Source: a virus
Taxonomy: Duplodnaviria; Caudoviricetes
Direction: 5' to 3' (one strand)
IMG/VR virus record: IMGVR_UViG_3300010354_000121
Coordinates: 1 to 53,542 of that record
Length of the DNA stretch: 53,542 nucleotides
Shown: positions 5,401 through 19,466 of the stretch, piece by piece
How the letters are laid out: the number at the start of each line of letters is the position of its first letter
Numbering within the stretch: position 1 is the first letter of the stretch
The notes under the pieces: model-generated
Told to the model about the DNA's origin: nothing
What the model saw: only the letters and a program-made list of their open reading frames with translations
Databases searched by the model: none
Made by a program: the position numbers and the translations under genes

Positions 5401-5598
5401 GTTAATGTTAAAGTAGGAAATAATTCTTCTCTTGTAGGTATTTCGGCTACTGCATATTATGGGGATTATAGTTGGGGTAGAGTTTATAACGTATCAAAAT
5501 CAGGCATTTCTACATTCCAGGCATATGCACCTGGAATTACCACCTCTACTATAATACAAAGAAGTGTTCCTTTAAAATTTGTAAATTATCTCAACTAA
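2398..5598 (+). CDS. Baseplate wedge structural protein (continuation of gp7-like protein) with GSGY beta-repeats
   Basis: ATGA overlap with the previous ORF; repeated ITNPGSGY-type units; C-terminal YYGDYSWG; directly upstream of gp8. Confidence 0.65.
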   Translation: MSNISFSSGYGEYTSGEFFKSAAFEITSNGFFIFSREFLSNSPKFVNLSENSFDFTQHSFVTGEELVYDYPKNNITIPIGIVTTTISGVSTDILPKTLYAVKQDFSTLKVAATKANALLPEPITLNLRSYGKGTHKIYSKNPNLNSLITINNIIQEPIVSTSVTTSTTQSIITSDLSVTVENPDVLTGGDFIQVNNEIMRVLSVGIGSTNNIFIERSLLGTDPGIHGQNSLITKVRGNYNIIENFIHFVVSPYGNSFDPESGLTNSSTFSGRVFLRSGKESTTIGPYDNNFIFDYISESFTGKDSTFTLKNKSNNVVGISTDNAIVTINDVFQPPSRLSGNVINGAYTLSENVGITSIIFNGNPSFPDYDVNISEYPRGGIILSVGSTEGFGYQPLISAGGTAIVSTAGTIQSISIGYSGSGYRSGIQTVNVGVGYSDVVGFDLEKIGTASISNGIIVGVSITNPGSGYTNTNPPNVYFDAPLSYDNLPLIYSSGSSGLGTGAKISVIVGQGSSVINFELTNLGFGYEKGEILTIPIGGTTGIPTTSNFKQFEVKIDSIFNDDSSVRTIGQLIIIDPIDSLFDGKRKSFPLRINGEQTAILSRIGSDLNVENNLLIFIDTVLQVPTEAYSFRGGSIITFKEAPIKGSKSTILFYAGTEGVDTKLVNVLKTVKIGDYLQIFDNTDRQDDQNPRSVSDILSVDIVKTNLYDKQGISDQDEIRPVKWCPQNVDRFVIGSGSTISTIVTKDREIYESFIRPFAFVISGIGSTSSEIFVDNVKTFFDNANESLVVNSINIISQIPQSPAKLTANVSLAGTIQSIQIESVGQGYFEPPKIRVSNPVGLGTTAILTCSLNSSGGISTVNIINAGSGYTGPQPLVIVEEPTQIIESASDVSYEGDFGIIVGVGTTTVGAYFDLFIEEDSYLRDSSINSVGAAITGPSGISNNYYFYVSNSNVGNGLTSLNISDQPIGIGTTFIDNVYQVNSWSIVQRNIVGVGTTFVKRVNVKVGNNSSLVGISATAYYGDYSWGRVYNVSKSGISTFQAYAPGITTSTIIQRSVPLKFVNYLN

Positions 5599-5617: not shown

Positions 5618-7198
5618 ATGGCAGCAATCATAACTGATAATTTAAGAATCTCAAGGGCCAAGCAGTTTGTTTCTGCCGCCTCTTCTTCAAATTATTATAG
5701 TTTCATTGGATTACCCAACCCAAATGAGTATTCTTCAAATTGGAATGTTTCTCCAATAGCCCCAAAAGATAGCTTTGAGGAAGAATCGTCTTATTGGGAC
5801 AGTATGATTGCTCTTAAAAAAATTCATACTAGTGATATAAGACAGTCCATAAGAAAAATAAAATGGGAAAGTGGCATAACTTATGATATGTACCGCCATG
5901 ATATTACCCGAGATAATATTTCTAGACCATCAAGAGCAACAAGTTTATATTCATCTAATTATTACGTCGTCAATAGTAATTACCAAGTTTATATTTGTCT
6001 GTATAATGGGGTTTCACCTGAAAATCAAGAGGGAAGACCATCTCAGTTTGAGCCAACTTTTACCGACTTAGAACCAAGAACTGCCGGAAATGGTTCTGAT
6101 GGGTATATTTGGAAGTATCTTTTTACCCTAAATGCTTCTGAAATTATCAAGTTTGACAGTACTAATTTTATTCCGGTTCCACTAAACTGGGGTCAGGATC
6201 AACAAACATCTCTAATAAAAAATAATGCCCAAAACAATGGTCAGATAAAAATTTGTACCATAAAAAACCGAGGAAATTATGAAAATGTTTCTAGTGTAAG
6301 AAACAGAACATTCAGAAATATTCCCATTAAAGGTGATGGAACCGGGGCCACTGTATCGATTTCGTTTAATAGTAACTTTCAAGTAGAGAGTATTTTCGTC
6401 ACTAATGGAGGAAGTGATTATACTTATGGTCGGGTTGATTTGATGGCTGCTGGAATTCCAGCAGCCCAGGTAGAACCCGTATTTGATGTAATTATTCCAC
6501 CTAAAGGGGGCCATGGTTTTGATATTTACAATGAATTAGGTGCATTTTATGTTTCGGCTTATGCTAGAATAGAAAATGATCTAGAAAATCCAGATTTTAT
6601 AACTGGCAATGAAATTGCAAGAATTGGTATTGTTGAAAATCCTGAGAAGTTTAATTCAACAGATCCTTTAACCGTAGACAAGGCAAGTGCCCTTTCTGCC
6701 CTAAAATTAGTCGGGATAACGAATCAAAATGATTACAATTCGGCTACTTTCCAGCCAGATTCCTTTATAACCCAGACAGTAGGTACTGGAGTAACTGCTG
6801 TTGGAAGAGTAATTTCTTATGATAAGAATACTGGAGTATTAAAATATTGGCAAGATAAAACTTTGGTTGGATTTGCCACAACTGGTGGTCAAAACTCTCC
6901 TGCTTATGGGCTCAATCTTGAGAAATTCACCTCATCACCAGAAACAGGTGGAAGTCTTACTATTTCTGGTGGAAGTATTAATTTAAATATTGATGTTTCT
7001 TTTGGTTCTACAGAATCACCCGGTATAACTACAGTAATAAATAATAGGACGTATAAGTTAGGTCAATCTTTTATTAATGGAGTTTCTAATCCGGAAGTAA
7101 AGAAATATTCTGGAAACATCATTTATGTTGATAATAGACCGGCTATTACAAGATCAAAAAATCAAAAAGAAGACATTAAGGTAATTCTACAGTTCTAA
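5618..7198 (+). CDS. gp8: Baseplate wedge subunit gp8
   Basis: MAAIITDNLRI start; WESGITYDMYRHD, YQVYICLYNG, DGYIWKYLF motifs; C-terminal NQKEDIKVILQF. Confidence 0.85.
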   Translation: MAAIITDNLRISRAKQFVSAASSSNYYSFIGLPNPNEYSSNWNVSPIAPKDSFEEESSYWDSMIALKKIHTSDIRQSIRKIKWESGITYDMYRHDITRDNISRPSRATSLYSSNYYVVNSNYQVYICLYNGVSPENQEGRPSQFEPTFTDLEPRTAGNGSDGYIWKYLFTLNASEIIKFDSTNFIPVPLNWGQDQQTSLIKNNAQNNGQIKICTIKNRGNYENVSSVRNRTFRNIPIKGDGTGATVSISFNSNFQVESIFVTNGGSDYTYGRVDLMAAGIPAAQVEPVFDVIIPPKGGHGFDIYNELGAFYVSAYARIENDLENPDFITGNEIARIGIVENPEKFNSTDPLTVDKASALSALKLVGITNQNDYNSATFQPDSFITQTVGTGVTAVGRVISYDKNTGVLKYWQDKTLVGFATTGGQNSPAYGLNLEKFTSSPETGGSLTISGGSINLNIDVSFGSTESPGITTVINNRTYKLGQSFINGVSNPEVKKYSGNIIYVDNRPAITRSKNQKEDIKVILQF

Positions 7199-7203
7199 TT
7201 ATT

Positions 7204-10200
7204 ATGCCACAAGAAACTAATTTAAATGTATTTCCATATTTTGATGATTTTAATAGTGACAAGAATTACTATAAGGTCTTATTTAAACCAGAATACCCGG
7301 TTCAGGCAAGAGAATTAAATAATCTCCAGTCTATTTTACAAAATCAGGTTGAGCAGTTTGGTAACCATATTTTTAAAGAAGGTTCTGTTGTAATCCCAGG
7401 ACAACTTTCTATTGACAATCCCTTTTATGCTGTAGAGATAGAGCCAGAATTTAATAATATTCCAATCTCAGCATATTTTAATCAAATTTTAGGGAAAACC
7501 ATACGTGGTTTAATTAGTGGAGTCAGTGCTACGGTTGTTTATGTTTTAGATAAACAATTCTCAGAGAGAAATAATTATACTCTATATGTACAATACCTAG
7601 AAAGTGGAGGTCAAGACTTCTCTAATAAAGTATTTTTTGATGGAGAAACAATAATAACAGAATCAGTAATTACATACTCTGGAATTACCATTCAGGCTGG
7701 ACAAAGTATTTGCAATACAATTGCTGAAAATTCAACCTCAAGTGGTTCTTCTGTAAATATTGCTCCGGGAATTTATTTTGTTCGTGGAACATTTGCAAAA
7801 GTAAACCAACAAAGAATTCTTTTAGATCAGTACGGGACCTCACCGAATTATAAGGTAGGTTTTAATGTAATTGAAAGAATTGTCTCATCTGTAGAGGACG
7901 AAACCTTATTTGATAATTCTCAGGGGTTTTCAAATTATGCTGCCCCTGGTGCCGATAGATTTCAAATTGAACTAGAACTAAAAAAATATGGTCTAAACGA
8001 ATCTCCAGATAACTTTATAGAAATATTAAGAATTATTAATGGAACTACACAGTTTCTCCAAAAAGATCCTCAATATAGTCTAATACGTGATGAACTAGCC
8101 CGAAGAACTGCCGAAACAAATGGAGATTATTATGTAAAACCATTTACTCTTTTTGTTCGTGATTGTCTGAATGATAGGGTTTTAAACAATGGTATATATT
8201 TTGAGGACCAAAAAACCGTAAATGGTAATACACCAAATGAAGAGACTATGGTGTATGAAATTGGTCCAGGTAAGGCATATGTTAATGGATATGATGTCGA
8301 AATAATTTCTCCTAAACTACTAGAAGTTCCAAAAACAAGATCTACTAAAACAATAGAAGATCAATTAATTCCATATAATGCTGGTAAACTAATTCAACTT
8401 AATAATGTTACTGGAGTTCCATATATTGGCCTAGGGACTGATGCGACAGTCAGTTTAATGGATTCTAGAATTGGGATCAATTCTACCGTTGCTGCTGGAA
8501 CGACTATTGGTGTTGCTAGAGTTTATGATTATGTTCCAGAATCTGCTTATGTTAATGATACTAGCATCTTAGATTTAAGATTATTTGATATTCAAACTTT
8601 CTCTAAAATAACTCTTACTACTGAAATTACTCAAGCAACCCCAGCCCATATTAAAGGTGAGAGGAGCAATGCTTCTGGCTACTTATACCAATCAGTTTCT
8701 AATAGCAAAGATCTTGTTCTTTATCAAGTATCTGGTGAATTTTCCCAAAATGAACCAATCTCAATCAATGGAATTTCAAATGGTAGGCTTATTTCCAATG
8801 TAACGGATTATTCCGCGTCTGATGTAAAATCAATTTATTCTTCAACATTTAATGCTGACGTAGTTTTAAATAATAAAATTCTAATCGCTCCAGTAGGCAG
8901 CCAATTTAATATTACTAAAGGATCAGGTGGAATCAGCACAGTAACTTCTAATTTAGACAATAATTTTGTAGGGAAAATACAACCAAATGATATTATATCT
9001 TATTCTAATCCAGATGCTCAAAGCATAATTTATAATAAGGTAGGCGCCGTCGCAGCTGATGGCACTAGTTTTACTCTTACTGGAATAACAACCGTAAGCG
9101 GAATTTGCGATGGTAGATTACCTAATTCTAATTTAACTGTAACAAATTTAGTAAAAGTCTCAGGAAATATTTTCTCAAGGGATTCATCATTACTTACTAA
9201 ATTGAATCGATCAAATGTGTCATCTATAAGTTTAGATAACGCTGAAATAAAACAAAGAAGAATTTTTACAAACCAAACAATTACTGCTAGTTCTATTTCA
9301 TTATCTATAACAGATGATGATGTATTTTTTGATACTTTTGATGAAGACAAGTATCTAATTGTTTATTCTAATGGTATTATTGAGCCATTAAGAAGAGATA
9401 AATTTCAATTTGTTGGTAACACTGGTAAACAAATTAAATTTAATGGTCTTTCACAACCAAATGGAATAACCGCGACTGTTATAGCTACTGTAAAAAATGT
9501 CAGGCCAAATTCTAAAACTAAAATTTTAAATAAGACAACCAAACTTACCATTGTAAATTCAAAACTTACTGCATCAGGTGTCGGGACAACCACCTTAAAT
9601 GATGGCCTGACTTTTAGTAATGTTTATGGTACTAGAGTACAAGATGAAGAAATCAGTCTAAATGTTCCAGATGTTTTAAGGGTTATTGCAGTTTATGAAT
9701 CATCATCAACCTCCGATCCAAGTCTTCCTGTAATACAATTCTCTTCTTTCAGTGGCCCGACTAATAGTAATCAGGATTTGTTTGTTGGAGAACAAATTAC
9801 AGGTAAAACTTCTGGTGCAGTTGGCCTAATTGTCAATAGAATTGATTCAGATAAAGTTGAATATGTTTATCTTAATAACTCAACTTTTTCTGAAAATGAA
9901 GTAATTAAATCAAAAGAATCTAACATAGAAGCAAGTATTATTAGTGTATCTTTAGGTGATGCTAATGTTACCCAGAACTTCGTTTTTGATGATGGCCAAA
10001 GAGATTCTATTCTAGATTATTCTAGAATTATCCGGAAGAAGAATGTTTCAGAGCCAACTAGAAAACTAACTGTTGTATTTCAAAATTATGTTATAAATTC
10101 AAATGATGATGGAGAATTTGTATCAGTAAATAGCTATAAATCAGAAGACTATAAACACGACATTCCATATTTTAATAAAGAAAGACTTTCTGATTATATT

Positions 10201-13200
10201 GATTTAAGGCCGAGGGTTGCTCCTTATACATTAACAACTAAATCCCCTTTTGAATTTAATTCAAGGAATTTTTCCGGGGATGGTCAATATTCAAATTATG
10301 TTATTGTCCCTGATGAAACTCTTCTATTGACATATTCTTATTATCTTCCTAGGACTGATGTAGTATTTTTAGACCAAGACGGTAAATTTGAGGTGGTTCA
10401 AGGAACTCCAGATGATATTCCTCAATTACCAGAATTTAAGTCTAATTCATTTGATATTGCTATTGTAAATATTCCACCTTATGTTTATGATGTAAAAAAT
10501 ATTTTAGTGAATATGTCTGAACATAAGAGATATCGAATGGAAGATATCTCTTTATTAGAAGATAGAATCGAAAGAGTTGAAGAATTTACTGTTTTGTCCA
10601 GCCTGGAAAGTAAAACAGAAAACTTTAATATAACAGATGCTGAAACCGGTCTTAATAGATTCAAATCTGGTTTCTTTGTTGATGACTTTAAGAGTCATGC
10701 TTACCATGATCTACAAAATTTTAACTTTAAGGCATCTATTGATAAACAGAAAAAGATTTTAAGACCTCTACATTACACAACTTCAATTGATCTTCAACTT
10801 GGATCCGAGGCTATCGCAAACTTTACTGGCAGTTTTTCACCAAATGTTGATCAAAGTTTTGTAAATGATTTAGGGTCAAATGGAGTCAAAAAAACTGGAG
10901 ATCTAGTAACACTTAATTATAATGAAGTAGTTTACGACCAACAATTATTAGCAACAAAAACAGAAAGTGTTACTGCTTTTCTCGTTAGATATTGGTCTGG
11001 TCTTCTTAATTTAAATCCACCTTTAGATACTTGGGTGGACGAAAAAGCCACAACAACAAATAGCTTTAATGAAATAAGAACAACAGAAGATCCTCTTCCT
11101 GATGTTAATATCTTAATTGAAAATTCTGTAACAGAAAACCAAACTGTATTCAGGGATTCTCCCAATGCCCAAAGTGGTATCCAACCTTTTGATTGGCTAG
11201 AAAATGCGAGGAGAAGAATATCGGCTGGTGGTCAAATAGGTCTTGCTGGACGATCGGCCCAAAGCCGTAGGGCTCTTATTATAGGAAAAAACCGAAAAGG
11301 TGGAATTAGAACTTTAGAAATTGTTAATGGCAATACAATTAGAATTGATGGCATACACTGGACCACTGGAGATCTTTCACTTTTAAGTCAATACGTTCCA
11401 ACTGATGTTGCTCGACAATTTTTAACCAGAATGCGGGCCAATCCCTTAACTGGTTTAGGTGGATTTTTAGAATTTACTCCAAATAATATAAACACTGATA
11501 GTTCTTCCACTACAAGTACTCGAACAACAACAAATACTGTAACGACAATAACACCTGAAGCAATTGTCGAAACTATTGACAATTCTTCATCTTTATCAAA
11601 TTATACTGAACCAGTAAGATATCTAAGAAGTCGAAATATCGAATTTGACGCTATTGGCCTAAAACCAAGAACTAGATTTTATTCATTCTTCCAGGGCGTT
11701 AAAACAGATGATTATGTTATTCCTAAACTACTAGAAGTAGAAATGATATCTGGGTCATTTTCCGCTGGAGAAAGGGTGATCTCTGATCCAAATTTTGTTG
11801 ATAAAAAAATATCATTTAGGCTATGTACCCCAAATCATAAAGTAGGACCGCATAATAATCCAAGTGAGACTTTTGAATTTAATCCTTATACCCAGACTTC
11901 CTTTGAAACAAATTATTCACAAAGCTCTACTGTCTTAAATGTTGACACTAGATCATTAGAACTACAGACCGAAACCGATTTTTATGGTCAGGTTTCTCCT
12001 AATATGCGTCTCATCGGAACCTCATCGGGTGCCGTTGCTAGGGTCACCCGGATTAATTTACTATCAGATAATAGTGGAAGACTAATCGGGTCTCTTTATA
12101 TTCCTGATCCTAATATAATTGGGAACCCTAAATGGATAAATGGGGAAAATACCTTTACCCTAATTGATACAGCTGATCTAGATCAACTTAAATTAGTAGA
12201 ATTTCTACCAGACTCTAGAATTAATGAAAGTAGTGCCGAAACCGAATTTACTTCAAGTGGCATAACAAATATAACTGAGACCAATATTTTGACTACTAGG
12301 AATATCAGAATTATTCCACCTAGAAACATTAATACCACCACTATTAATAATGTAACGACCAATACATCTAGTAGTAGTCAACAAATAAGTCCTGGTGTAG
12401 TCAATATTCAACAACCATATGATCCACTGGCCCAGTCTTTCTATGTCTTTGAAGATACTGGAGTATTCTTGACTTCTGTTGAGGTTTTCTTTGAGACAAA
12501 AGATTCTAATAATATTCCAGTTACTCTTCAAATTAGACCTCTACTTGCTGGGGTTCCAAGTAATGTAGTTGTTCCATTTTCTGAAGTAACTCTTACACCA
12601 GATAAAGTAAATATTTCTGTTGATGGTTCGGTTTCTACTAAATTTACCTTTATTTCTCCTATTTTCCTTCAGGGTCCAAAACAACAAACTGTCAGACAAT
12701 CCCCTATTGCCAGCATCACCCAGGCCGAATATGCAATAGTTCTTCTTTCAAATAGCCCTAATTATAGAGTTTTTATAACTCAGCTGGGTCAAAATGATAT
12801 TGCCACTGGAGTTAAAGTCTCAAGTCAGCCAACTCTAGGAAGCATGTTTAAATCTCAAAATGGTAGTGTTTGGACACCTTCTCAACTAGAGGATCTAAAA
12901 TACAAAATTAACCGTGCCGACTTTGTTAATGAGGGTATCGTTAGATTTTTTAATCCAAAATTAGACATCGGAAACAAAAAAGTTTCTGTTACTGGTCCAA
13001 ATCAATTTGAATTCTTATCAAAGAAAATAATTGTTGGTCTAGGTTCAACTGGCTATTCACCCGATGTTGTTCCTGGCATAACTATTCAACAAGGTTCGGC
13101 AAGTGCAACATTAACCGGAATTGCTGGAAGCATAGCCGGGGCTGGTGTAACAATTAGCAATGTTGGTTTTGGTTATACTGATGGAACATTTACTGGGATT

Positions 13201-14925
13201 AATCTAAAAACTGAAACTGGATTTGGCATAGGTGCTGTTGCTACAGTTGTAGTCTTAAATAATGTAATAGATTCATTAAGTATTACAAATGGTGGTTCTG
13301 GTTATCTAGTAGGTGATTCGTTAACAATTCCACCAATTGGTCAAGGTGTAGGATTTGGTGGTAAATTGACTGTAACCAATATTGGTTCTCTTAATTCATT
13401 TGTTTTAGACGAGGTTCAGGGAACATTCTCAGTTGGAATAACAACAGTAAATTTTGTAAATTCTTCTGGAGTCTCAACTACAATTGGAGCCGGGGTAACA
13501 ATTTCTTCAATAACTGAGGATCAATTTTACGATGGTCTTCATATGAAAATTTACCAGCAAAATCATTGTATGCATTCTTTTGAAAATTATATGACCATTA
13601 GTAAGTTTAGACCGGCTAATAATGATTTAAATACAAGAATATCTTCAACGATTTCTTCTACTCAAACAACTCCAATCTCCGTAGTTTCTACTTCCGGTTT
13701 TGATACTTTTGAAGGGCTTAATGTAAGTGGGTCAAATCCTGGATATTTAATAATTGGGGAGGAAATTATTTCTTATACTGGAATTTCCGGTAATACCTTT
13801 ACTGGAATAACTAGGGGTATTGATGGGACATTACCTATTTCATATCAAAACAATACTAGAGTCTATAAGTATGAATTTAATGGAATTTCCCTAAGAAGAA
13901 TAAATAAAACTCACAATTTTGCAGAAGTTGATTCTGCAAATACTGGTCTATTTCCAATTGATCTTAATAGTTATTTTATAAAAATTGATACATCAGATAC
14001 TGATTTCTTGAATAACACAGTTGGCACTAATCGAGAAAATAATTTATACTTTAGAAAACATTTTCAAGGAGGTACTTCTGGGACAATTATTTCTAATAAT
14101 ATTCAATATGAATCAATTTCTCTTGATGTAGCTAATATTATCCCCGCAAAAACAAATATTTCCACAAAGATTAGGACTTTTACGGGAACAAGTGTTGGTG
14201 GTAATGAAAAATCCTTTGTTGATAGAGGATTTGAAAATATTACATTAGACACTCAAGTTTATTTTAATGAGCCAAAATTAATTTGTTCTAGGGTTAATGA
14301 AGAGAAGTTTATATCATCTTCTCCTGGAAATAAGTCTCTGACATTTGAAATGCTTATGACCACAAGCGACTCAAGGGTATCCCCTGTCATTGATACAGTT
14401 AATGCTGCAGTCACTTTATACTCAAACCTTATTAATAACCCGAATGGAGTTGGAGAAGACTCTAATTATAGTTTAGATACTAGTGTAAGAAGTATTAATA
14501 ATGATAAGCACAATTTTGTTTATTTGTCAAAACCCGTAAGATTAAAAATTCCAGCAAATGCTATTAAGGTTATCCTTAGTGCAAGCCGAAATGACCTAAA
14601 TGATATCAGGGTCCTTTATCAGATCTTTAGAGATGATGAATCCAATACCGAACCATCATTTAATCTGTTCCCCGGTTATTCAAACTATCAAGTAGATGGA
14701 TCGGGAATTAAGAGGGTTATTGATCTCTCCAAAAATGATGGATCTGCTGACTCTTTTGTTAAAGAAACATCTGATAGAGCATTCAAGGATTATGAGTATT
14801 CCATTGATGATCTTCCTGATTTTAGTGCTTTCGCAATAAAAATTGTGGGTGCAAGTAACAATCAGGCAACCCCTCCTTTAATTAAGGAACTAAGAGCCAT
14901 TGCAACAGTCAAACCTAGGATCTAA
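7204..14925 (+). CDS. Large virion structural protein, VrlC-like / DUF4815 family
   Basis: MPQETNLNVFPYFDDF, VQARELNNLQSILQNQ, APGADRF, RFKSGFFVDDF and DPLAQSF motifs; 2573 aa; located between gp8 and gp13. Confidence 0.8.
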   Translation: MPQETNLNVFPYFDDFNSDKNYYKVLFKPEYPVQARELNNLQSILQNQVEQFGNHIFKEGSVVIPGQLSIDNPFYAVEIEPEFNNIPISAYFNQILGKTIRGLISGVSATVVYVLDKQFSERNNYTLYVQYLESGGQDFSNKVFFDGETIITESVITYSGITIQAGQSICNTIAENSTSSGSSVNIAPGIYFVRGTFAKVNQQRILLDQYGTSPNYKVGFNVIERIVSSVEDETLFDNSQGFSNYAAPGADRFQIELELKKYGLNESPDNFIEILRIINGTTQFLQKDPQYSLIRDELARRTAETNGDYYVKPFTLFVRDCLNDRVLNNGIYFEDQKTVNGNTPNEETMVYEIGPGKAYVNGYDVEIISPKLLEVPKTRSTKTIEDQLIPYNAGKLIQLNNVTGVPYIGLGTDATVSLMDSRIGINSTVAAGTTIGVARVYDYVPESAYVNDTSILDLRLFDIQTFSKITLTTEITQATPAHIKGERSNASGYLYQSVSNSKDLVLYQVSGEFSQNEPISINGISNGRLISNVTDYSASDVKSIYSSTFNADVVLNNKILIAPVGSQFNITKGSGGISTVTSNLDNNFVGKIQPNDIISYSNPDAQSIIYNKVGAVAADGTSFTLTGITTVSGICDGRLPNSNLTVTNLVKVSGNIFSRDSSLLTKLNRSNVSSISLDNAEIKQRRIFTNQTITASSISLSITDDDVFFDTFDEDKYLIVYSNGIIEPLRRDKFQFVGNTGKQIKFNGLSQPNGITATVIATVKNVRPNSKTKILNKTTKLTIVNSKLTASGVGTTTLNDGLTFSNVYGTRVQDEEISLNVPDVLRVIAVYESSSTSDPSLPVIQFSSFSGPTNSNQDLFVGEQITGKTSGAVGLIVNRIDSDKVEYVYLNNSTFSENEVIKSKESNIEASIISVSLGDANVTQNFVFDDGQRDSILDYSRIIRKKNVSEPTRKLTVVFQNYVINSNDDGEFVSVNSYKSEDYKHDIPYFNKERLSDYIDLRPRVAPYTLTTKSPFEFNSRNFSGDGQYSNYVIVPDETLLLTYSYYLPRTDVVFLDQDGKFEVVQGTPDDIPQLPEFKSNSFDIAIVNIPPYVYDVKNILVNMSEHKRYRMEDISLLEDRIERVEEFTVLSSLESKTENFNITDAETGLNRFKSGFFVDDFKSHAYHDLQNFNFKASIDKQKKILRPLHYTTSIDLQLGSEAIANFTGSFSPNVDQSFVNDLGSNGVKKTGDLVTLNYNEVVYDQQLLATKTESVTAFLVRYWSGLLNLNPPLDTWVDEKATTTNSFNEIRTTEDPLPDVNILIENSVTENQTVFRDSPNAQSGIQPFDWLENARRRISAGGQIGLAGRSAQSRRALIIGKNRKGGIRTLEIVNGNTIRIDGIHWTTGDLSLLSQYVPTDVARQFLTRMRANPLTGLGGFLEFTPNNINTDSSSTTSTRTTTNTVTTITPEAIVETIDNSSSLSNYTEPVRYLRSRNIEFDAIGLKPRTRFYSFFQGVKTDDYVIPKLLEVEMISGSFSAGERVISDPNFVDKKISFRLCTPNHKVGPHNNPSETFEFNPYTQTSFETNYSQSSTVLNVDTRSLELQTETDFYGQVSPNMRLIGTSSGAVARVTRINLLSDNSGRLIGSLYIPDPNIIGNPKWINGENTFTLIDTADLDQLKLVEFLPDSRINESSAETEFTSSGITNITETNILTTRNIRIIPPRNINTTTINNVTTNTSSSSQQISPGVVNIQQPYDPLAQSFYVFEDTGVFLTSVEVFFETKDSNNIPVTLQIRPLLAGVPSNVVVPFSEVTLTPDKVNISVDGSVSTKFTFISPIFLQGPKQQTVRQSPIASITQAEYAIVLLSNSPNYRVFITQLGQNDIATGVKVSSQPTLGSMFKSQNGSVWTPSQLEDLKYKINRADFVNEGIVRFFNPKLDIGNKKVSVTGPNQFEFLSKKIIVGLGSTGYSPDVVPGITIQQGSASATLTGIAGSIAGAGVTISNVGFGYTDGTFTGINLKTETGFGIGAVATVVVLNNVIDSLSITNGGSGYLVGDSLTIPPIGQGVGFGGKLTVTNIGSLNSFVLDEVQGTFSVGITTVNFVNSSGVSTTIGAGVTISSITEDQFYDGLHMKIYQQNHCMHSFENYMTISKFRPANNDLNTRISSTISSTQTTPISVVSTSGFDTFEGLNVSGSNPGYLIIGEEIISYTGISGNTFTGITRGIDGTLPISYQNNTRVYKYEFNGISLRRINKTHNFAEVDSANTGLFPIDLNSYFIKIDTSDTDFLNNTVGTNRENNLYFRKHFQGGTSGTIISNNIQYESISLDVANIIPAKTNISTKIRTFTGTSVGGNEKSFVDRGFENITLDTQVYFNEPKLICSRVNEEKFISSSPGNKSLTFEMLMTTSDSRVSPVIDTVNAAVTLYSNLINNPNGVGEDSNYSLDTSVRSINNDKHNFVYLSKPVRLKIPANAIKVILSASRNDLNDIRVLYQIFRDDESNTEPSFNLFPGYSNYQVDGSGIKRVIDLSKNDGSADSFVKETSDRAFKDYEYSIDDLPDFSAFAIKIVGASNNQATPPLIKELRAIATVKPRI

Positions 14926-15154: not shown

Positions 15155-15973
15155 ATGGCAAAACCCTCCTCAAGGCAAGAACTAGTCGATTACTGCAAAA
15201 GAAAACTTGGCGCTCCGGTCTTAGAAATTAATGTGGCCGATGAGCAGATAGATGATTTGGTTGATGATGCTATTCAACTTTTTCAGGAAAGACATTTTGA
15301 TGGTGTGGCCCAGACATTTTTAAAATATGAAATAACCCAAGAAGATATTGACCGGGCCAGAGGTAGAACCGGAGAAGGCATTTCTTCAAAAGTTGGCATT
15401 GCAAAAACATATACTTATCAAGAAAATTCTAATTATATTGAAATTCCGGATCATGTGATCGGAATTAATAAAATTTTTAAATTATTTGGTGGTAATAGTC
15501 TTGGTTATGGTATGTTCAATTTTAAGTATCAACTACTACTAAATGATCTTTATTATTGGGGTTCTACGGACATTCTAACTTATTTTACTGTAAAGCGTTA
15601 TCTTGAGGATCTTGACTGGATTTTAAGTCCGGATATTATGGTGAGGTTTAATAAAAGAGACACTAAACTTTATATTGATATTGATTGGGCAACCGTTTCT
15701 CCTGGTAATATCCTTCTTATTGATTGTTATAGGGCCCTTGATCCAACAGATTCAACAAAAGTCTGGAACGATAGTTTTCTTAAACAATATCTAACGGCAC
15801 TTATTAAACGGCAGTGGGGTCAGAATCTTATTAAGTTTAGGGGAGTAAAACTTCCTGGTGGCGTCGAGTTAAATGGTCGGGAAATGTATGATGATGCCCA
15901 AAAAGAAATTGATATGCTTATGGAGCGTATGAGTTCCACATATGAGATGCCGACCTTCGACCTTATCGGATAA
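15155..15973 (+). CDS. gp13: Neck protein gp13
   Basis: LVDYCKRKLGAPVLEINV; ALIKRQWGQNLIKFRGVKLPGGVELNG. Confidence 0.92.
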   Translation: MAKPSSRQELVDYCKRKLGAPVLEINVADEQIDDLVDDAIQLFQERHFDGVAQTFLKYEITQEDIDRARGRTGEGISSKVGIAKTYTYQENSNYIEIPDHVIGINKIFKLFGGNSLGYGMFNFKYQLLLNDLYYWGSTDILTYFTVKRYLEDLDWILSPDIMVRFNKRDTKLYIDIDWATVSPGNILLIDCYRALDPTDSTKVWNDSFLKQYLTALIKRQWGQNLIKFRGVKLPGGVELNGREMYDDAQKEIDMLMERMSSTYEMPTFDLIG

Positions 15974-15976
15974 TTT

Positions 15977-17830
15977 ATGTTAAATCCATTCTTCCTCAAT
16001 GGATCCACCACAGAACAAAATCTTATAAATGACCTAGTAAAAGAGGCCATTCAAATTCATGGTGTAGATGTTTATTATCTTCCTAGAGAATACGTCACAA
16101 AAAGAACAGTAATAAGAGAAGTAATTGAGTCTAAATTTAGTAATGCCTTTCCTTTAGAGGCATATATCGATACTTATGAAGGGTATGAGGGAGCCGGGGT
16201 CCTTTTAAGTAAATTTGGTATTCAACCAAGTACTGATATTACTCTTATTATTTCAAAAGAAAGATATGAAACACATATTACTCCATTAATCAAAAATATC
16301 CCAAACATAAAACTTTCAGATAGACCGAAAGAAGGCGATCTAATTTGGTTTCCTTTAGGTGATCGTTTGTTTGAAATAAAATTTATTGAACATGAAATTC
16401 CTTTTTATCAATTACAAAAAACCTATGTTTATAATCTAAAATGTGAGTTATTTAGATATCAAGATGAGATTATTGCTACTAATATTGACTTTATTGATGA
16501 TAATACTAAGGATCAGGGTTATACCGAATTTTATAATATGCTTGCAAGGGGCGAACAGGCTTCTGCAATTACAAGTCTTGAAGATTGCGGAGTAAGATAT
16601 GTAACAGTAACAAAAAGAGGAGTATATTCATCTACACCAACTGTCAATTTCCCACAATCTCCGGAAGGTATAACTGCAACTGGAGTTGCAAGAATGATCT
16701 CTGGTATTGTTGATTTATGTGAACCAGATGAATCTAAATTAAGGGTTCAAGCAGTTGATATAATTAATCCCGGTTCTGGGTACTGTGGTGCGGTTATTGA
16801 CTCTTTTGATAAATCTTTAATTAGATTTAAAAAATATTTAATCCACGTTAATAATAATTCAGATCCTAATAAAACACAAAACTTACTTTTAAATTTGATA
16901 CACAATAATGGCGATATTATTGTCAATAATCAATATGGATTAGGCTATTCTCAAGTAAATTTGGGTAATTTTAGTGGCAGAATGGTTGATTCAAGAATAA
17001 ATCTTATTTTTTCGCCATTTGATGTTTCGTCTACTTATTCAATTAATAGTTTTTCTTTTGATATTAATGATTCTGATACAACAGTTGGCAATATTTCTTT
17101 AGGGGATGTAGTAAAAATTAATTCTTCTAATGTTTCTGGTGAAGAAAATAAAACTATAATAAAAATTCCTAATACAAAATCCGCAGCAAAAGTTTTAATT
17201 GTTTATTCGGATTTAATTAACAATAAATTTTATTCCGAAGAAATAAATTATATACAAGATGGGGTTGATATATTATATAATACATATGGAAGTTTAGATA
17301 TAAATAAACCATCTGGAATAGGGACTTATGCATTAACATATGATGGTCCTGATATTAATATTGAATTTTATCCAGACGAGAATACTGAATTTAATATAAA
17401 TGTTCTTTCTATTGAAATATCAGATTTATCTGCCACCTCGACAGGCACTTTGATTTTAAGTGGTAGTAGAATAGAATCTACTTATGTTGGAGTTAATTCC
17501 TCTGGCTCACCCCAAAAAACTCTAATTTATTCATATAATAATAATTTTAATTCTGGTTTACATCAAATATTAATTGAAACTGAAAGTAATAATAATATAA
17601 ATTATTCAGAGGTTTTAACCCTATTAAATAGTTCAAATAAATCTGTAAATTCAGTAGAATTTGGCAAGTTAAATCTTCGTGGTGAAATTGGCATAATAGA
17701 AACTGAGTATTTACCTTCAACTAATACATTAGAAATGTATTTTACCCCATATCAAGATATAGATTATCAGGTAAGAATATGTAGTATTTTGACTTCAACC
17801 AATAAAAGGTCAGAAATTTTATCAATATGA
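15977..17830 (+). CDS. gp14: Neck protein gp14 N-terminal part fused to a module paralogous to the C-terminus of ORF 2..2401
   Basis: EQNLINDLVKEAIQIHGVDVYYLPRE, RPKEGDLIWFP, PFYQLQK are gp14 motifs; residues from ~273 onward align by eye with the last ~345 aa of the first ORF. Confidence 0.85.
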   Translation: MLNPFFLNGSTTEQNLINDLVKEAIQIHGVDVYYLPREYVTKRTVIREVIESKFSNAFPLEAYIDTYEGYEGAGVLLSKFGIQPSTDITLIISKERYETHITPLIKNIPNIKLSDRPKEGDLIWFPLGDRLFEIKFIEHEIPFYQLQKTYVYNLKCELFRYQDEIIATNIDFIDDNTKDQGYTEFYNMLARGEQASAITSLEDCGVRYVTVTKRGVYSSTPTVNFPQSPEGITATGVARMISGIVDLCEPDESKLRVQAVDIINPGSGYCGAVIDSFDKSLIRFKKYLIHVNNNSDPNKTQNLLLNLIHNNGDIIVNNQYGLGYSQVNLGNFSGRMVDSRINLIFSPFDVSSTYSINSFSFDINDSDTTVGNISLGDVVKINSSNVSGEENKTIIKIPNTKSAAKVLIVYSDLINNKFYSEEINYIQDGVDILYNTYGSLDINKPSGIGTYALTYDGPDINIEFYPDENTEFNINVLSIEISDLSATSTGTLILSGSRIESTYVGVNSSGSPQKTLIYSYNNNFNSGLHQILIETESNNNINYSEVLTLLNSSNKSVNSVEFGKLNLRGEIGIIETEYLPSTNTLEMYFTPYQDIDYQVRICSILTSTNKRSEILSI

Positions 17831-18465
17831 GTAATATTTCATTTTCATCTAATTATGCGGAATATAATGATTATTCTAAGTTCTCTATTTCTTTTACTGG
17901 AGGAGATGGTTCTGGGGCAGAAGCTTTTCCTACAATAGGTGAAGGAATTATTGGAATAATAACAGTAACTAATGGTGGTTCTGGTTATTTATCGCCCCCA
18001 GAAATTTCTTTTGTTGGAGTTGCAGAATCATCAGCAAAAGCAGTATCTGTTATTTCTAATGGTTCGGTTTCTCAAATAAGAATTTTAGATGCTGGTTCTG
18101 GATATACAGAAGTTCCTCAAATAGTTATAGGTGCTCCTTATGTTTCTGGATTTGGTACATATATTTTTAATGAAGAGGTTGTAGGTAGTGCCTCTAGTAT
18201 GACTGCCAGAGTAAAAGACTGGAACACACAGACGCTAATACTACAGCTATCTAATATCTCTGGACCATTTATTCCAGGTGAATTAATTATTGGTCAGCAA
18301 TCTGGGGCTAGTTATCAGATTATTTCTGGAAATCGATTAACAACAATTGACGAGAAAATTGAAGACAGTATTGTTACTAATGGGTTTACTCAAAATGATG
18401 ATATTCAGATAGCTGCCAATGAAATACTTGACTTTAGTGAAAGAAACCCATTTGGAGTACCATAA
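17827..18465 (+). CDS. gp14 C-terminal part encoded as a separate ORF
   Basis: Ends in NEILDFSERNPFG, the usual gp14 C-terminus; starts MSNISFSS like ORF 2398..5598; ATGA overlap with the upstream ORF. Confidence 0.75.
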   Translation: MSNISFSSNYAEYNDYSKFSISFTGGDGSGAEAFPTIGEGIIGIITVTNGGSGYLSPPEISFVGVAESSAKAVSVISNGSVSQIRILDAGSGYTEVPQIVIGAPYVSGFGTYIFNEEVVGSASSMTARVKDWNTQTLILQLSNISGPFIPGELIIGQQSGASYQIISGNRLTTIDEKIEDSIVTNGFTQNDDIQIAANEILDFSERNPFGVP

Positions 18466-19466
18466 TGTTTGAACATTTTTATTACGAGGCAATTAGAAAA
18501 ACTGTTATTGCCTTTGGAACACTTTTTAACAACATTTATATTAAACATAAAAATGATGAAGGAAACGTTGTATCAACCCAAAAGGTTCCTTTTGCCTATG
18601 GTCCTACTCAAAAATTCTTAGCCAGACTAGAACAATCACCTGATTTGAATAAACCAATTCAAATCACGACTCCTAGAATGTCCATGGAGATTATTGGACT
18701 TTCTTATGACTCTTCAAGAAAAGGCGGGACTATGAGAGCCTTTACTGCCACTGATGACAACAATAAACCAAGGAAGTCATACTTACCTGTTCCGTACAAC
18801 ATTAATTTTGAACTGAGTATTTTTACTAAGTTAGAGGATGATATGTTCCAAATAGTGGAACAAATTCTTCCTTATTTCCAGCCACATTATACAATAACTA
18901 TAACTCTTATTGAAGAAATTAATGAAAAAAGAGACATAAAATTTACTCTGGATAATGTTTCATTAAGCGATAATTATGAAGGAAATTTTGAACAAAGAAG
19001 AGCACTTATTTGGACATTAAAGTTTACGGCAAAAACTTATATGTTCTTACCAATTTCTGGGGCTTCTATTGAAAATAGTATTATCAACAAGGTCACTCTT
19101 GGGTTTGCGGCCGGGGAAAATTCAAATACCATAAACAACGATATTGACATCACTGTTACTCCAAAAGCGGCCAAAAATTATACTGGCACTGTTGTAACAA
19201 CTGTTAAACAAGATGCTAAGGCCGATGAAAAATTAATCTATGTCAATGACGCATCTAGTTTGTCACCTCAAAGCCTAATCCAAATTAATAACGAGACTCT
19301 TTATATTGAAACAGTAAATACTGATTCAATCAAGGTAATTAGAGGGATTTATGAAACTCAGGCCCAGTTACATGTTTCTGGTTCTGATGTATTAAATATA
19401 ACTACAGTGGATAATAATTTAATTCCACCAAATGATTTATTTGGTTTCATAAGTACATTTACATAA
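18465..19466 (+). CDS. gp15: Tail sheath stabiliser / tail terminator gp15
   Basis: FYYEAIRKTVIAFGTLFNNI, KVPFAYGPTQKFLARL, QIVEQILPYFQP. Confidence 0.92.
   Translation: MFEHFYYEAIRKTVIAFGTLFNNIYIKHKNDEGNVVSTQKVPFAYGPTQKFLARLEQSPDLNKPIQITTPRMSMEIIGLSYDSSRKGGTMRAFTATDDNNKPRKSYLPVPYNINFELSIFTKLEDDMFQIVEQILPYFQPHYTITITLIEEINEKRDIKFTLDNVSLSDNYEGNFEQRRALIWTLKFTAKTYMFLPISGASIENSIINKVTLGFAAGENSNTINNDIDITVTPKAAKNYTGTVVTTVKQDAKADEKLIYVNDASSLSPQSLIQINNETLYIETVNTDSIKVIRGIYETQAQLHVSGSDVLNITTVDNNLIPPNDLFGFISTFT

Follow-up and report, generated by a model that had tools for sequence, protein, structure and literature searches.

The neck gene gp14 of the freshwater cyanophage studied here is interrupted by a piece of about 1.09 kb which, judging from the sequence comparisons below, comes from the baseplate gene gp7 of a foreign B3-like lineage and was inserted once. 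The whole stretch of DNA analysed (hereafter the window) is 53,542 nucleotides long, and its resident gp7 holds a diverged copy of the same segment, making this a duplication; the split gp14 is unique to its lineage, occurs in independent samples and carries a copy that is under constraint. In the explanation that we think best and consider probable, the foreign gp7 piece split gp14, and a joint made of a short tag and a beta block tethers the halves. The piece, from another B3-like lineage, would have entered a surface loop in the second GxGY beta-repeat of gp14. It would have covered the place at which gp7 itself is cut, taking in the block, the ATGA overlap and the first 13-19 codons of gp7-C, and because the copied piece spanned this cut gp14 would have inherited it and become two open reading frames (ORFs). 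The products would be gp14(1-272)-block and tag-gp14(C-terminal 193 aa), probably translated in a coupled fashion and presumably reassembled in the virion. The gp7 cut would be a non-covalent joint, the tag MSNISFSSxYxEY lying as a beta-strand on the last strands of the block subdomains, and the same joint, probably with help from the orphaned strand SISF, would hold the C-terminal fragment of gp14 on the neck core. The tethered fragment would bear an acidic helix and a tail, whose presumed T4 counterpart clasps the tail terminator gp15.

The baseplate region of the window contains the following features:

2..2401, + strand: gp7-N, first polypeptide of the baseplate wedge initiator, 3' part only, as the window begins inside the gene (tblastn, B3 annotation, P0153)
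1361..2398, + strand: resident block, taking up the final 346 codons of gp7-N and made of three beta subdomains of ~110 aa in tandem (BLASTP, hhalign)
2398..2401, + strand: ATGA stop/start overlap of gp7-N and gp7-C
2398..5598, + strand: gp7-C, the second of the two polypeptides that make up this initiator, matched by phrog_2885 'baseplate wedge subunit' at E 3.6e-219
2398-2436, + strand: conserved tag MSNISFSSGYGEY, gp7-C residues 1-13

The ORF at 2..2401 is open at its 5' end, and several lines of evidence identify it. The tblastn matches to the block fall in CDSs named 'baseplate wedge initiator/subunit' in 17 phage records; the annotation of Synechococcus phage B3 gives gp7 as two neighbouring CDSs, that of Synechococcus phage B23 likewise has two gp7 CDSs, and protein P0153 (2818 aa) is almost identical to the resident gp7-N across the block. 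The subdomains of the block resemble one another with hhalign probabilities of 95.5% (d1-d2), 86% (d2-d3) and 54% (d1-d3). Within the B3-like cyanomyovirus clade, the block forms the C-terminus of gp7-N in 27 of the 27 proteins compared, and ATGA followed by MSN[IV]SFS marks the gp7 junction in 15 of 16 loci compared, a set from which loci L016-L021 (30-33% to gp7-C) were left out because tblastn placed no block within 2.5 kb upstream. In the gp7 relative L040, ATGA is replaced by TAA and then ATG in the same frame. The gp7 of S-SM2 is a single unsplit CDS of 4156 aa, collinear through the junction, and in unsplit gp7 proteins of ~4000 aa the block lies at about residues 2570-2960. By these comparisons, the gp7 cut is clade-wide among B3-like cyanomyoviruses and old, and the block, being continuous in S-SM2, is a normal internal stretch of gp7 rather than a device dedicated to splitting. 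The initial annotation had described a duplicated protein-splitting module at both sites, and that description gives way to a normal piece of gp7 with one insertion into gp14.

The neck region of the window contains the following features:

15155..15973, + strand: gp13-type neck / head completion gene, upstream neighbour (synteny with B3 b3_0269)
15977..17830, + strand: first gp14 ORF (P0003, 617 aa)
15977..16792, + strand: gp14 proper, N-part, with the neck core (aa 1-177) followed by the initial GxGY beta-repeats as far as the loop GSGY-CGA (aa 178-272)
16793..17883, + strand: insert, the foreign gp7 segment (block, ATGA and 19 codons of the downstream ORF)
16793-17826, + strand: block within the gp14 insert
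17827..17830, + strand: ATGA overlap created in gp14 by the insert
17827..17871, + strand: tag MSNISFSSNYAEYND, downstream ORF residues 1-15, to which the predicted interface is confined on the partner's side
17827..18465, + strand: second gp14 ORF (212 aa)
17884..18465, + strand: gp14 proper, C-part, with the strand SISF completing the interrupted repeat, two further repeats, a beta domain and, at the end, a predicted acidic helix with a tail that closes in LDFSERNPFGVP
18465..19466, + strand: gp15-type tail completion / terminator gene, downstream neighbour (synteny with B3 b3_0271 'T4-like gp15')

The neck protein gp14 is an essential virion hexamer that joins head to tail. In the window, Pfam family PF11649 (T4_neck-protein) matches residues 1-177 of the first ORF (E 6.1e-33, 114.8 bits, the cut-off being 25), T4 gp14 chains 9mkb/9lu4 match a close unsplit relative (E 1.4e-27), and the C-part at 17884..18465 matches phrog_460 'head closure Hc2' (E 3.8e-31). 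At locus L023, gp14 residues 1-177 are 96.6% identical to those of the window, and the flanking gp13-type and gp15-type ORFs are 97% (dS 0.56) and 93% identical, respectively. Comparison with unsplit relatives bears out the earlier observation that the block interrupts a gp14 repeat and that the usual C-terminus lies in the second ORF, since these relatives read ...GFGY TVAP SVSFSGGGGGG... where the window reads ...GSGY CGA [VIDSF...block...stop / MSNISFSSNYAEYNDYSKF] SISFTGGDGSG.... The codon of V273 begins at 16793 and that of residue 19 in the second ORF ends at 17883, and the interval first given for the feature, 16793-17885, fits this insert. The predicted N-terminal peptide of the 212-aa ORF is (M)SNISFSSNYAEYNDYSK; among the first 19 codons of this ORF 13 are clearly gp7-derived and the other 6 not clearly so, and gp14 homology begins at its residue 20, 21 or 25 across 16 of 16 related loci.

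The AlphaFold2 model of the unsplit gp14 P0010, which is 82% identical to the window gp14 N-part and stands in for the window protein in folding, has a mean pLDDT of 73, with the repeats at 83-95. In this model the insertion point corresponds to the loop 267-275, between strands 257-266 and 276-280. Superposition on T4 gp14 (9lu4_M) gives Z 8.8 and an rmsd of 3.5 over 95 aligned residues within model residues 28-162, and the C-terminal end forms a helix (442-456) followed by a low-confidence tail. The last 42 residues of the second ORF in the window include 9 acidic against 2 basic residues. No sequence homology was detected between the gp14 C-terminus and the T4 hook, the Pfam and PDB matches ending at about residue 177. 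The account of the T4 neck in PMC12929629 has gp14 residues 212-245 (acidic helix and hook) embracing the gp15 ring, and by analogy we infer a gp15-binding role for the cyanophage gp14 C-terminus.

The two copies of the block are readily aligned. As the initial annotation had noticed, the closing ~345 residues of the window's first ORF are matched by gp14 residues ~273-617: in a BLASTP comparison of P0001 with P0003, residues 455-799 align to 272-617 with 154 of 347 positions identical (44%), 3 gaps and an E of 3e-81, and the codon-aligned nucleotide identity of the blocks is 618/1032 (60%). At both sites the sequence directly shows the ATGA overlap and, after it, an ORF that begins MSNISFSS. 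The first 13 residues of the two downstream ORFs are identical at 11 positions, both conforming to MSNISFSS-Y-EY, and a scan of all six frames found these motifs at the two places only in the window.

The resident gp7 is not the nearest relative of the insert, with which it shares 45% amino acid identity against 62% for the nearest one, the gp7 of locus L043. In the phylogeny, the insert nests with the gp7 of L042/L043 (support 97/87) and of P0130/P0132 (100/99), and residue N9 of the tag is common to the insert and L043. The terminal branch of the insert is 0.66 long, compared with 0.13-0.15 for its sisters, and the gp14 copy evolves 4-5 times faster than these gp7 sisters. Among 120 listed gp14 homologues, the 617-aa form is represented by P0009 only (616/617 identical), the other 119 being unsplit proteins of 387-475 aa; the split gp14 was seen in a single 90%-identity cluster, and none of 36 other matches to the 212-aa ORF covers residues 1-19 or begins MSNISFSS. 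A scan of IMG/VR with the gp14 block copy alone found no relative, relatives being recovered once gp7-C, gp14-C and the block alignment served as queries, and the metagenome scan contributed 4 further loci, all gp7. The survey of fused and split forms suggested at the outset thus gives a gp7 that is split clade-wide and unsplit in S-SM2, and a gp14 that, among the homologues listed, is split in this lineage alone. After such divergence no convincing microhomology can be read at the insert boundaries.

Several comparisons indicate that constraint has been retained on the gp14 copy. It keeps 40 of the 43 positions that are invariant across 36 gp7 blocks, while its identity to L043 at variable block positions is 38%, and its reading frame stayed open in 0 of 20000 shuffles of the insert. 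The tag has undergone a single change in 13 residues relative to L043, against a block divergence of 38% (binomial p 0.018). Within gp14 proper, dN/dS is 0.06 for the C-terminal domain (aa 106-212 of the second ORF) and 0.03 for the core, and 0.2-0.27 for the repeats flanking the insert, compared with 0.05-0.07 for these repeats between two unsplit relatives. The 4-5-fold branch and the flanking dN/dS fit relaxed constraint as well as adaptation.

The initial annotation had also proposed beta-strand complementation, with the MSNISFSS peptide docking into the upstream module; structure prediction agrees, and the idea stands as a predicted docking. The complex model of the gp14 block with residues 1-40 of the downstream ORF gave ipSAE values of 0.86, 0.87 and 0.87, compared with 0.01 for the best of 3 controls. 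The ipSAE mark applied is reached by 58 of 80 solved complexes and by 2 of 110 mismatched pairs, counts that hold only roughly for a model which, like this one, comes from one job with shallow custom alignments (7 and 6 rows). The docking runs share at least 95% of contacts, the partner has a pLDDT of at least 48 (48-52) and its fold is uncertain. In the predicted interface, tag residues 1-15 contact block residues 79-100, 1-14, 204-228 and 335-346, and peptide 3-11 runs antiparallel to block strand 85-93, so that the tag is predicted to dock on the block as a beta-strand. Between gp7 lineages, conservation is higher at the interface than in the remainder of the block (39/53 vs 149/292, Fisher p 0.0026), and in the gp14 copy the interface is not significantly better kept than that remainder (36/53 vs 178/292, p 0.36). 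Since the block has no PDB relative by sequence, the score is unlikely to reflect a memorised structure, and it should be noted that the model may readily bring together segments that an ancestral protein carried side by side. AlphaFold2 applied to the block alone (7-row alignment) gave a mean pLDDT of 52.7, too poor for a fold search, and the fold is therefore not independently established.

Other explanations of the same arrangement were considered. The window is a metagenomic viral contig with a CheckV completeness of 25, which would leave room for an assembly chimera or a sequencing error. We regard such an artefact as extremely improbable, as both flanks of the insert are gp14 and the two copies, at 60% DNA identity, are not confusable during assembly. 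Furthermore, the left boundary of the insert is bridged by contigs of runs X3 and X6, and the ATGA and right boundary by a contig of X2; these runs belong to three other studies, and positions 16973-17221 lie outside contig cover. A second 617-aa sequence, differing at one residue, is present on two other contigs, the 212-aa protein is present on 4 contigs from four sources, and several studies, whose runs date from 2017 to 2024, have contigs carrying the allele. The bridging contigs uphold the earlier statement that this is not a sequencing frameshift. It is also very improbable, in our opinion, that programmed -1 frameshifting at ATGA yields one fused gp14 with an internal block, and likewise a fused gp7. 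At both junctions the downstream ORF is indeed in the -1 frame with respect to the upstream one, and the junction has been conserved, but a slippery heptamer of the form X XXY YYZ is absent from the junction sequences (TTA TCA ATA TGA and GTA GAG TTA TGA), the codons ahead of the stop vary between lineages, and in L040 the TAA-ATG in the same frame needs no frameshift, such that a shared -1 shift could not serve there. ATGA overlaps are ordinary coupling signals, and other overlapping stop/start pairs exist in the window. Recoding had been named from the beginning as the alternative, and the lack of a heptamer at either junction and the L040 arrangement disfavour it.

More attention is owed to an explanation that shares the origin proposed here and differs in the glue, namely that the SISF strand, repeat packing, or binding to gp15/gp13 unites the fragments, with the block as a passenger or a neck decoration present six times per neck. 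SVSF (276-280) is confidently modelled in unsplit gp14 (regional pLDDT 94-95), and the transfer of the corresponding SISF strand to another chain creates a second possible site of complementation. The insert also lies in a loop beyond the neck core, T4 gp14 aligning to model residues 28-162 only, and both the rate of the copy and the lack of preferential retention of its interface (p 0.36) agree with a passenger. However, the tag is kept at 12/13 positions relative to L043 while the block has changed by 38%, 40 of the 43 invariant block positions have been retained, and the complex model passes by a large margin; hence we consider this explanation rather unlikely. Alternatively, the split allele could be partly defective, with gp14-N-block serving alone and the 212-aa ORF dispensable or being lost. 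The neck core (1-177) is complete within the first ORF, the split form is limited to one 90%-identity cluster, and the flanking repeats show the raised dN/dS given above. We nevertheless find a defective allele improbable: the 212-aa ORF shows no disruption, L022 and L023 have the identical 19 residues at their C-terminus, the C-terminal dN/dS is 0.06, although averaged over pre-split time, and the allele recurs in several studies from 2017 to 2024. In addition, the T4 C-terminal region forms the neck-tail clasp in the description given by PMC12929629.

Tethering of the halves by the tag and block, as favoured above, would have parallels in known systems. Strand complementation between chains is familiar from donor-strand complementation in chaperone-usher pili and from the engineered split GFP 1-10/11. 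The predicted arrangement is similar in that a short N-terminal strand would join the beta-sheet of another chain, and it differs in having no sequence or fold relation to these systems and in a strand that was once covalently continuous with its docking domain. Split inteins share two-piece coding, in which the first piece carries additional sequence at its C-end and the second at its N-end. Unlike split inteins, the gp7 copies have no nucleophile at block residue 1 and no C-terminal Asn followed by Cys/Ser/Thr, and the block is permanent in unsplit gp7. An intein was accordingly rejected as a candidate: no HINT family matched at E <= 10, the gp7 block starts S/T-V/I-I-D and the insert ends ...YSKF before S. 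Insertion of a homing endonuclease was likewise rejected, given that the two halves share an ATGA overlap that leaves no room for an intervening ORF, and that the block has no nuclease family match.

The most closely related junction is the fission of gp7 in B3 and B23, the source junction, which has the same block, ATGA and tag as gp14. It differs in that the cut parts of gp7 belong together in unsplit relatives, whereas the gp14 junction is foreign and retains a tag of 13-19 residues with no further gp7-C. T4 gp14 (9lu4, 9mkb), as described in PMC12929629, has a homologous N-terminal core, and its acidic C-terminal helix and tail have a predicted analogue in the window gp14. T4 gp14 is one chain of 256 aa, to which cyanophage gp14 adds ~200 residues of GxGY beta-repeats and a beta domain, and the window gp14 a further 345-aa gp7 block and a chain break. 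A phage gene cut by inserted foreign DNA with both halves kept is on record for NrdA of phage Aeh1 (Crona et al. 2011, PMC3045599). There, in the published account of the locus (PMC3045599), free-standing mobE lies between the nrdA halves, whose tails were born of that insertion, whereas nothing lies between the gp14 ORFs. The gp14 insert is moreover a piece of a structural gene bringing a joint already used clade-wide in gp7, and its target, known from sequence, is a virion protein instead of an enzyme.

A search of titles and abstracts found no published description of a split gp14 or of gp7 fission, and the gp14 case is a variant of 'genes in pieces'. It constitutes a natural experiment in protein fragmentation, in which a phage whose neck gene has been cut persists across several freshwater data sets. 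Should the docking prove real, structural proteins can exchange a split site as one unit with the non-covalent joint that belongs to it, and the one studied precedent, Aeh1 NrdA, is extended from enzymes to virion architecture and from tails made by an insertion to a joint already working elsewhere. We suggest more tentatively, and with slightly less than even confidence, that the gp7 block and its 13-15-residue tag are a self-sufficient, transferable non-covalent coupler ('catcher/tag') that was moved into an unrelated protein and keeps the cut gene functional. Were this true, the virion would contain two paralogous pairs, in the baseplate and in the neck, that must not cross-pair, and the 4-5-fold acceleration of the neck copy could reflect selection for orthogonality. 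Split junctions evolved beforehand would then let large phage structural genes break and reshuffle without loss of assembly. This would also account for the differing domain borders at which lineages cut their giant cyanophage gp7 (~4000 aa), and 15 residues against a beta block of 345 make a small, bench-testable interface and a possible part for protein engineering.

Searches of other collections bear on the identity of the block. It had no PHROG match at E <= 0.001, and nothing usable came from Pfam (E <= 10), PHROGs, the ESM Atlas or a profile search of the PDB; gp7-C had no match in a PDB sequence search. No block was found on a non-gp7 host among the 7 proteins inspected of 150 matches listed. 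P0200, P0166 and P0174, which had been candidates for other hosts, carry the motif QRIHDN.YYQYFSY and were rejected as gp7 fragments. The block itself does not match PF23618 (T4 gp9/gp10 C-terminal domain) at the 25-bit cut-off, and 5 of 14 small proteins that resemble its first subdomain have sub-threshold PF23618 scores of 19.8-24.6 bits.

The viral contig (53.5 kb; CheckV completeness 25; G+C 36%) comes from the structural-gene region of a T4-like cyanomyovirus, with Synechococcus phages B3 and B23 (Kyanoviridae) as its nearest named relatives (~71% nucleotide identity across gp14), and the sequencing runs in which the stretch occurs carry the source labels aquatic, lake water, freshwater and crustacean metagenomes. 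The genes lie in the following order:

2..2401, plus strand: gp7-N, first polypeptide of the baseplate wedge initiator gp7 (5' end open)
2398..5598, plus strand: gp7-C, second polypeptide of gp7
5618..7198, plus strand: gp8-like ORF
7204..14925, plus strand: 2573-aa ORF between the gp8-like gene and gp13
15155..15973, plus strand: gp13
15977..17830, plus strand: first ORF of the neck protein gp14 (617 aa, P0003)
17827..18465, plus strand: second ORF of gp14 (212 aa, P0004)
18465..19466, plus strand: gp15

B3 encodes a homologue of the 2573-aa ORF, a "hypothetical protein", in the corresponding position. Both gp14 (16550..16790 and 17884..18140) and gp7-C (3640..3850 and 4860..5050) contain short beta-repeats of the form N-x-G-x-G-Y-x-x-x-P-x-I/V-x-F, shared by BLASTP (E 2e-7). 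These repeats matched no Pfam family, and PHROG matches place them in several other large virion proteins as well.

The C-terminal block of gp7-N is present a second time inside gp14, as the initial annotation had claimed: residues 455-799 of gp7-N (P0001) and 272-617 of P0003 are identical at 154 of 347 positions with 3 gaps (E 3e-81), and their codon-aligned DNA at 618 of 1032. The shared junction was likewise borne out, with ATGA ending both upstream ORFs and MSNISFSS-Y-EY (the tag) opening both downstream ORFs; the window holds two such copies only. The block indeed interrupts a gp14 repeat unit, the window reading GSGY-CGA-[VIDSF ... stop/MSNISFSSNYAEYNDYSKF]-SISFTGGDGSG where unsplit relatives have GFGY-TVAP-SVSFSGGGGGG. 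The block alignment, together with the start of gp14 homology at residue 20, 21 or 25 of the second ORF in 16/16 related IMG/VR loci, places the insert at 16793-17883, essentially the extent first proposed. On the gp14 side of its left boundary, 16784..16792 encodes Cys270-Gly-Ala (CGA vs TVA in relatives), with the new cysteine just 5' of the block. This residue prompted a check for a split intein, which was negative, as the junction and insert fail its tests.

The block had initially been read as a duplicated protein-splitting module. It is no free module: in a tblastn search it falls under gp7 CDSs annotated as "baseplate wedge initiator" or "subunit" in 17 phage records. For example, gp7 of S-SM2 is a single 4156-aa CDS with the block in its interior, continuing unbroken past it through the segment aligning with the tag (...EIDFGNGLIVSHYARYEGT...), and B3 has two gp7 CDSs with an ATGA overlap, cut exactly where gp7 of the window is cut. 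The cut directly after the block is clade-wide, being typical of B3-like phages. The block is terminal in all 27 gp7-N-type proteins found to carry it (40-62% identical, 1421-2863 aa), and ATGA followed by MSN[IV]SFS[SA][GN]Y recurs at 15 of 16 further loci. The sixteenth, L040 (2471-2640), has TAA followed directly by ATG in the same frame, a diverged tag (MSNLFLSSNYSEY) and a block whose branch in the tree is long (1.1). Among 1.84 billion representatives, 275 proteins matched a block profile at E <= 0.001. Because three size groups of block-bearing proteins differ in block position (at the end in those of ~2800-3100 aa, near residues 2570-2960 in those of ~3800-4800 aa, and at the start in those of ~1400-1500 aa), gp7 is cut before the block, after it or nowhere, depending on the cyanomyovirus lineage. 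In P0178, a member of the smallest group that was read, the block continues unbroken into gp7-C.

A maximum-likelihood tree was reconstructed from 37 distinct blocks, with 8 identical rows dropped and P0156-P0158 left out as too distant. The gp14 block nests within one gp7 subclade, with loci L042 and L043 (97/87) and then P0130 and P0132 (100/99), and the resident gp7 block groups with P0153, far from the gp14 copy. This placement, the identity of 62% to L043 vs 45% to the resident copy, and a tag Asn9 common to the second ORF of gp14 and L043 (Gly in most gp7-C) argue that the donor is the gp7 of another lineage. Since the common node the gp14 block has evolved 4-5 times faster than its sisters (terminal branch 0.66 vs 0.13-0.15). 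Divergence of the surrounding region was computed against the close relative L023.

Divergence of the gp14 region from L023
gp13: dS 0.56
Neck core, gp14 aa 1-177: dS 0.70, dN/dS 0.03
gp14 aa 178-271: dS 1.36, dN/dS 0.27
Second ORF aa 20-105: dS 1.31, dN/dS 0.20
Second ORF aa 106-212: dS 1.15, dN/dS 0.07
gp15: dS 0.71

Along 16508..18465 (gp14 from ~aa 178 to the end), dS to L023 is 1.15-1.46, whereas gp13, gp15 and the gp14 core stay at 0.56-0.71. In the repeats beside the insert dN/dS is 0.2-0.27, vs 0.05-0.07 between two unsplit relatives. From ~aa 178 on, gp14 thus looks like a recombined patch that has been separate for longer, though only suggestively so, dS being near saturation.

The split gp14 is restricted to one lineage, as surveys of homologues, of the 212-aa ORF and of block loci show no other. 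Among the best 120 of 5206 gp14 homologues (from 5.8 billion proteins), the 617-aa form appears only in P0009, one residue off the window protein, and the other 119 (387-475 aa) match the gp14 part alone. Of the 37 matches to the 212-aa ORF, the other 36 reach a coverage of 91% at best, all of them lacking an MSNISFSS start. At every block locus outside the window, at least 480 open codons lie upstream, which identifies these loci as gp7 rather than gp14.

The inserted copy is still under constraint. It retains 40 of the 43 positions invariant across 36 gp7 blocks, keeps 70% of the positions with 80-99% conservation, and is just 38% identical to L043 at variable positions; shuffling the insert letters left 0 of 20000 versions open. 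The tag differs from that of L043 at 1 of 13 residues, where 38% divergence predicts ~5 (binomial 0.018).

Docking of the tag on the block, as first proposed, is supported by prediction. The block (alignment A2) and second-ORF residues 1-40 (alignment A3) were folded together three times, giving ipSAE of 0.86, 0.87 and 0.87 (best of 3 controls 0.01); the ipSAE mark is reached by 58/80 solved complexes and 2/110 mismatched pairs, counts that are only rough with custom alignments. At least 95% of contacts agree between runs, with partner pLDDT of at least 48. The block has no sequence relative among PDB chains, so recall of a solved structure by the model is an unlikely source of the score. In the models the partner contributes residues 1-15 only, and its residues 3-11 (NISFSSNYA) pair antiparallel to block 85-93 (INSFSFDIN, P0003 356-364), where conservation within the first subdomain is highest. 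Further modelled contacts (block residues 1-14, 204-206, 221-228 and 335-346) involve the N-terminus of the block, the final strands of its second and third subdomains and the linker that follows the second, from which we infer that the three subdomains would pack around the tag and that block entry and exit would lie close together, a requirement for insertion into a loop. Between gp7 lineages, conserved positions are more frequent in the predicted interface than elsewhere in the block (39/53 vs 149/292, p 0.0026).

The unsplit relative P0010 was modelled with AF2 (62-row alignment; mean pLDDT 73.2, repeats 83-95). The model places the insertion point in a loop (267-275) between strands 257-266 and 276-280, and at its C-terminal end a helix (442-456) leads into a low-confidence tail. 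T4 gp14 (9lu4_M) aligns to the core only (model 28-162; Z 8.8, rmsd 3.5, 95 residues). In T4, gp14 residues 212-245 make up an acidic helix with a hook, disordered before the tail joins and then embracing the gp15 ring (PMC12929629). The second-ORF end is similarly acidic (9 acidic vs 2 basic in 42 residues), with no sequence match between the T4 and window gp14 C-termini. By analogy, if the C-terminal fragment plays the same part as the T4 hook, it would have to stay on the neck core, which the first ORF encodes.

On balance, we favour a scenario in which a gp7 segment of another lineage inserted into gp14, bringing a working non-covalent joint, and the tag would dock on the block, with the C-terminal fragment held at the neck. 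The two gp14 ORFs would probably be produced by termination-reinitiation, because at every junction the stop and start codons overlap or directly adjoin and no Shine-Dalgarno motif was seen at the usual distance from the junction starts. It is unlikely, if by no means negligible, that the fragments reassemble via the orphaned strand of gp14 itself or by other contacts, the block being a passenger or decoration; the predicted interface is not significantly better kept than the rest in the gp14 copy (p 0.36). A partly defective split allele is improbable; the second ORF remains intact and ends in 19 residues identical to those in L022 and L023. Recoding, initially offered as the alternative, lost ground when the junctions failed the frameshift-site test, leaving -1 frameshifting there very improbable. 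An artefact is scarcely credible: the split allele occurs in several data sets, with the 212-aa protein on 4 contigs from four sources, the left insert boundary bridged by contigs of sequencing runs X3 (16235-16909) and X6 (16670-16850), ATGA and the right boundary by an X2 contig (17675-18465), and 300 nt of block in X8 without a difference.

Judged by title and abstract, no paper listed in literature searches seems to deal with a split gp14 or with gp7 fission. The nearest studied case is Aeh1 nrdA, split by mobE, where the tails created by the insertion event are reported to be essential, with a proposed role as interaction domains (PMC3045599). Compared with that case, the gp14 insert is part of another structural gene and contains no endonuclease gene, the split target is a virion protein, and the joint, whose docking is predicted, pre-existed and is conserved in its source gp7.

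The block is built of three mutually homologous beta subdomains of ~110 aa (hhalign: d1-d2 95.5%, E 1.4e-8; d2-d3 86%; d1-d3 54%), which may represent a widespread end domain of fibre or baseplate proteins that lacks its own Pfam family. Pfam T4_gp9_10_C matched 5 of 14 scanned small subdomain proteins below threshold, a lead rather than an assignment, and one of these also matched the T7 tail fibre N-terminal domain below threshold. Many small phage proteins (200-400 aa) carry a single subdomain (~85-110 aa) at their C-terminus, for instance P0263, P0272, P0273, P0276, P0279, P0281 and P0286.
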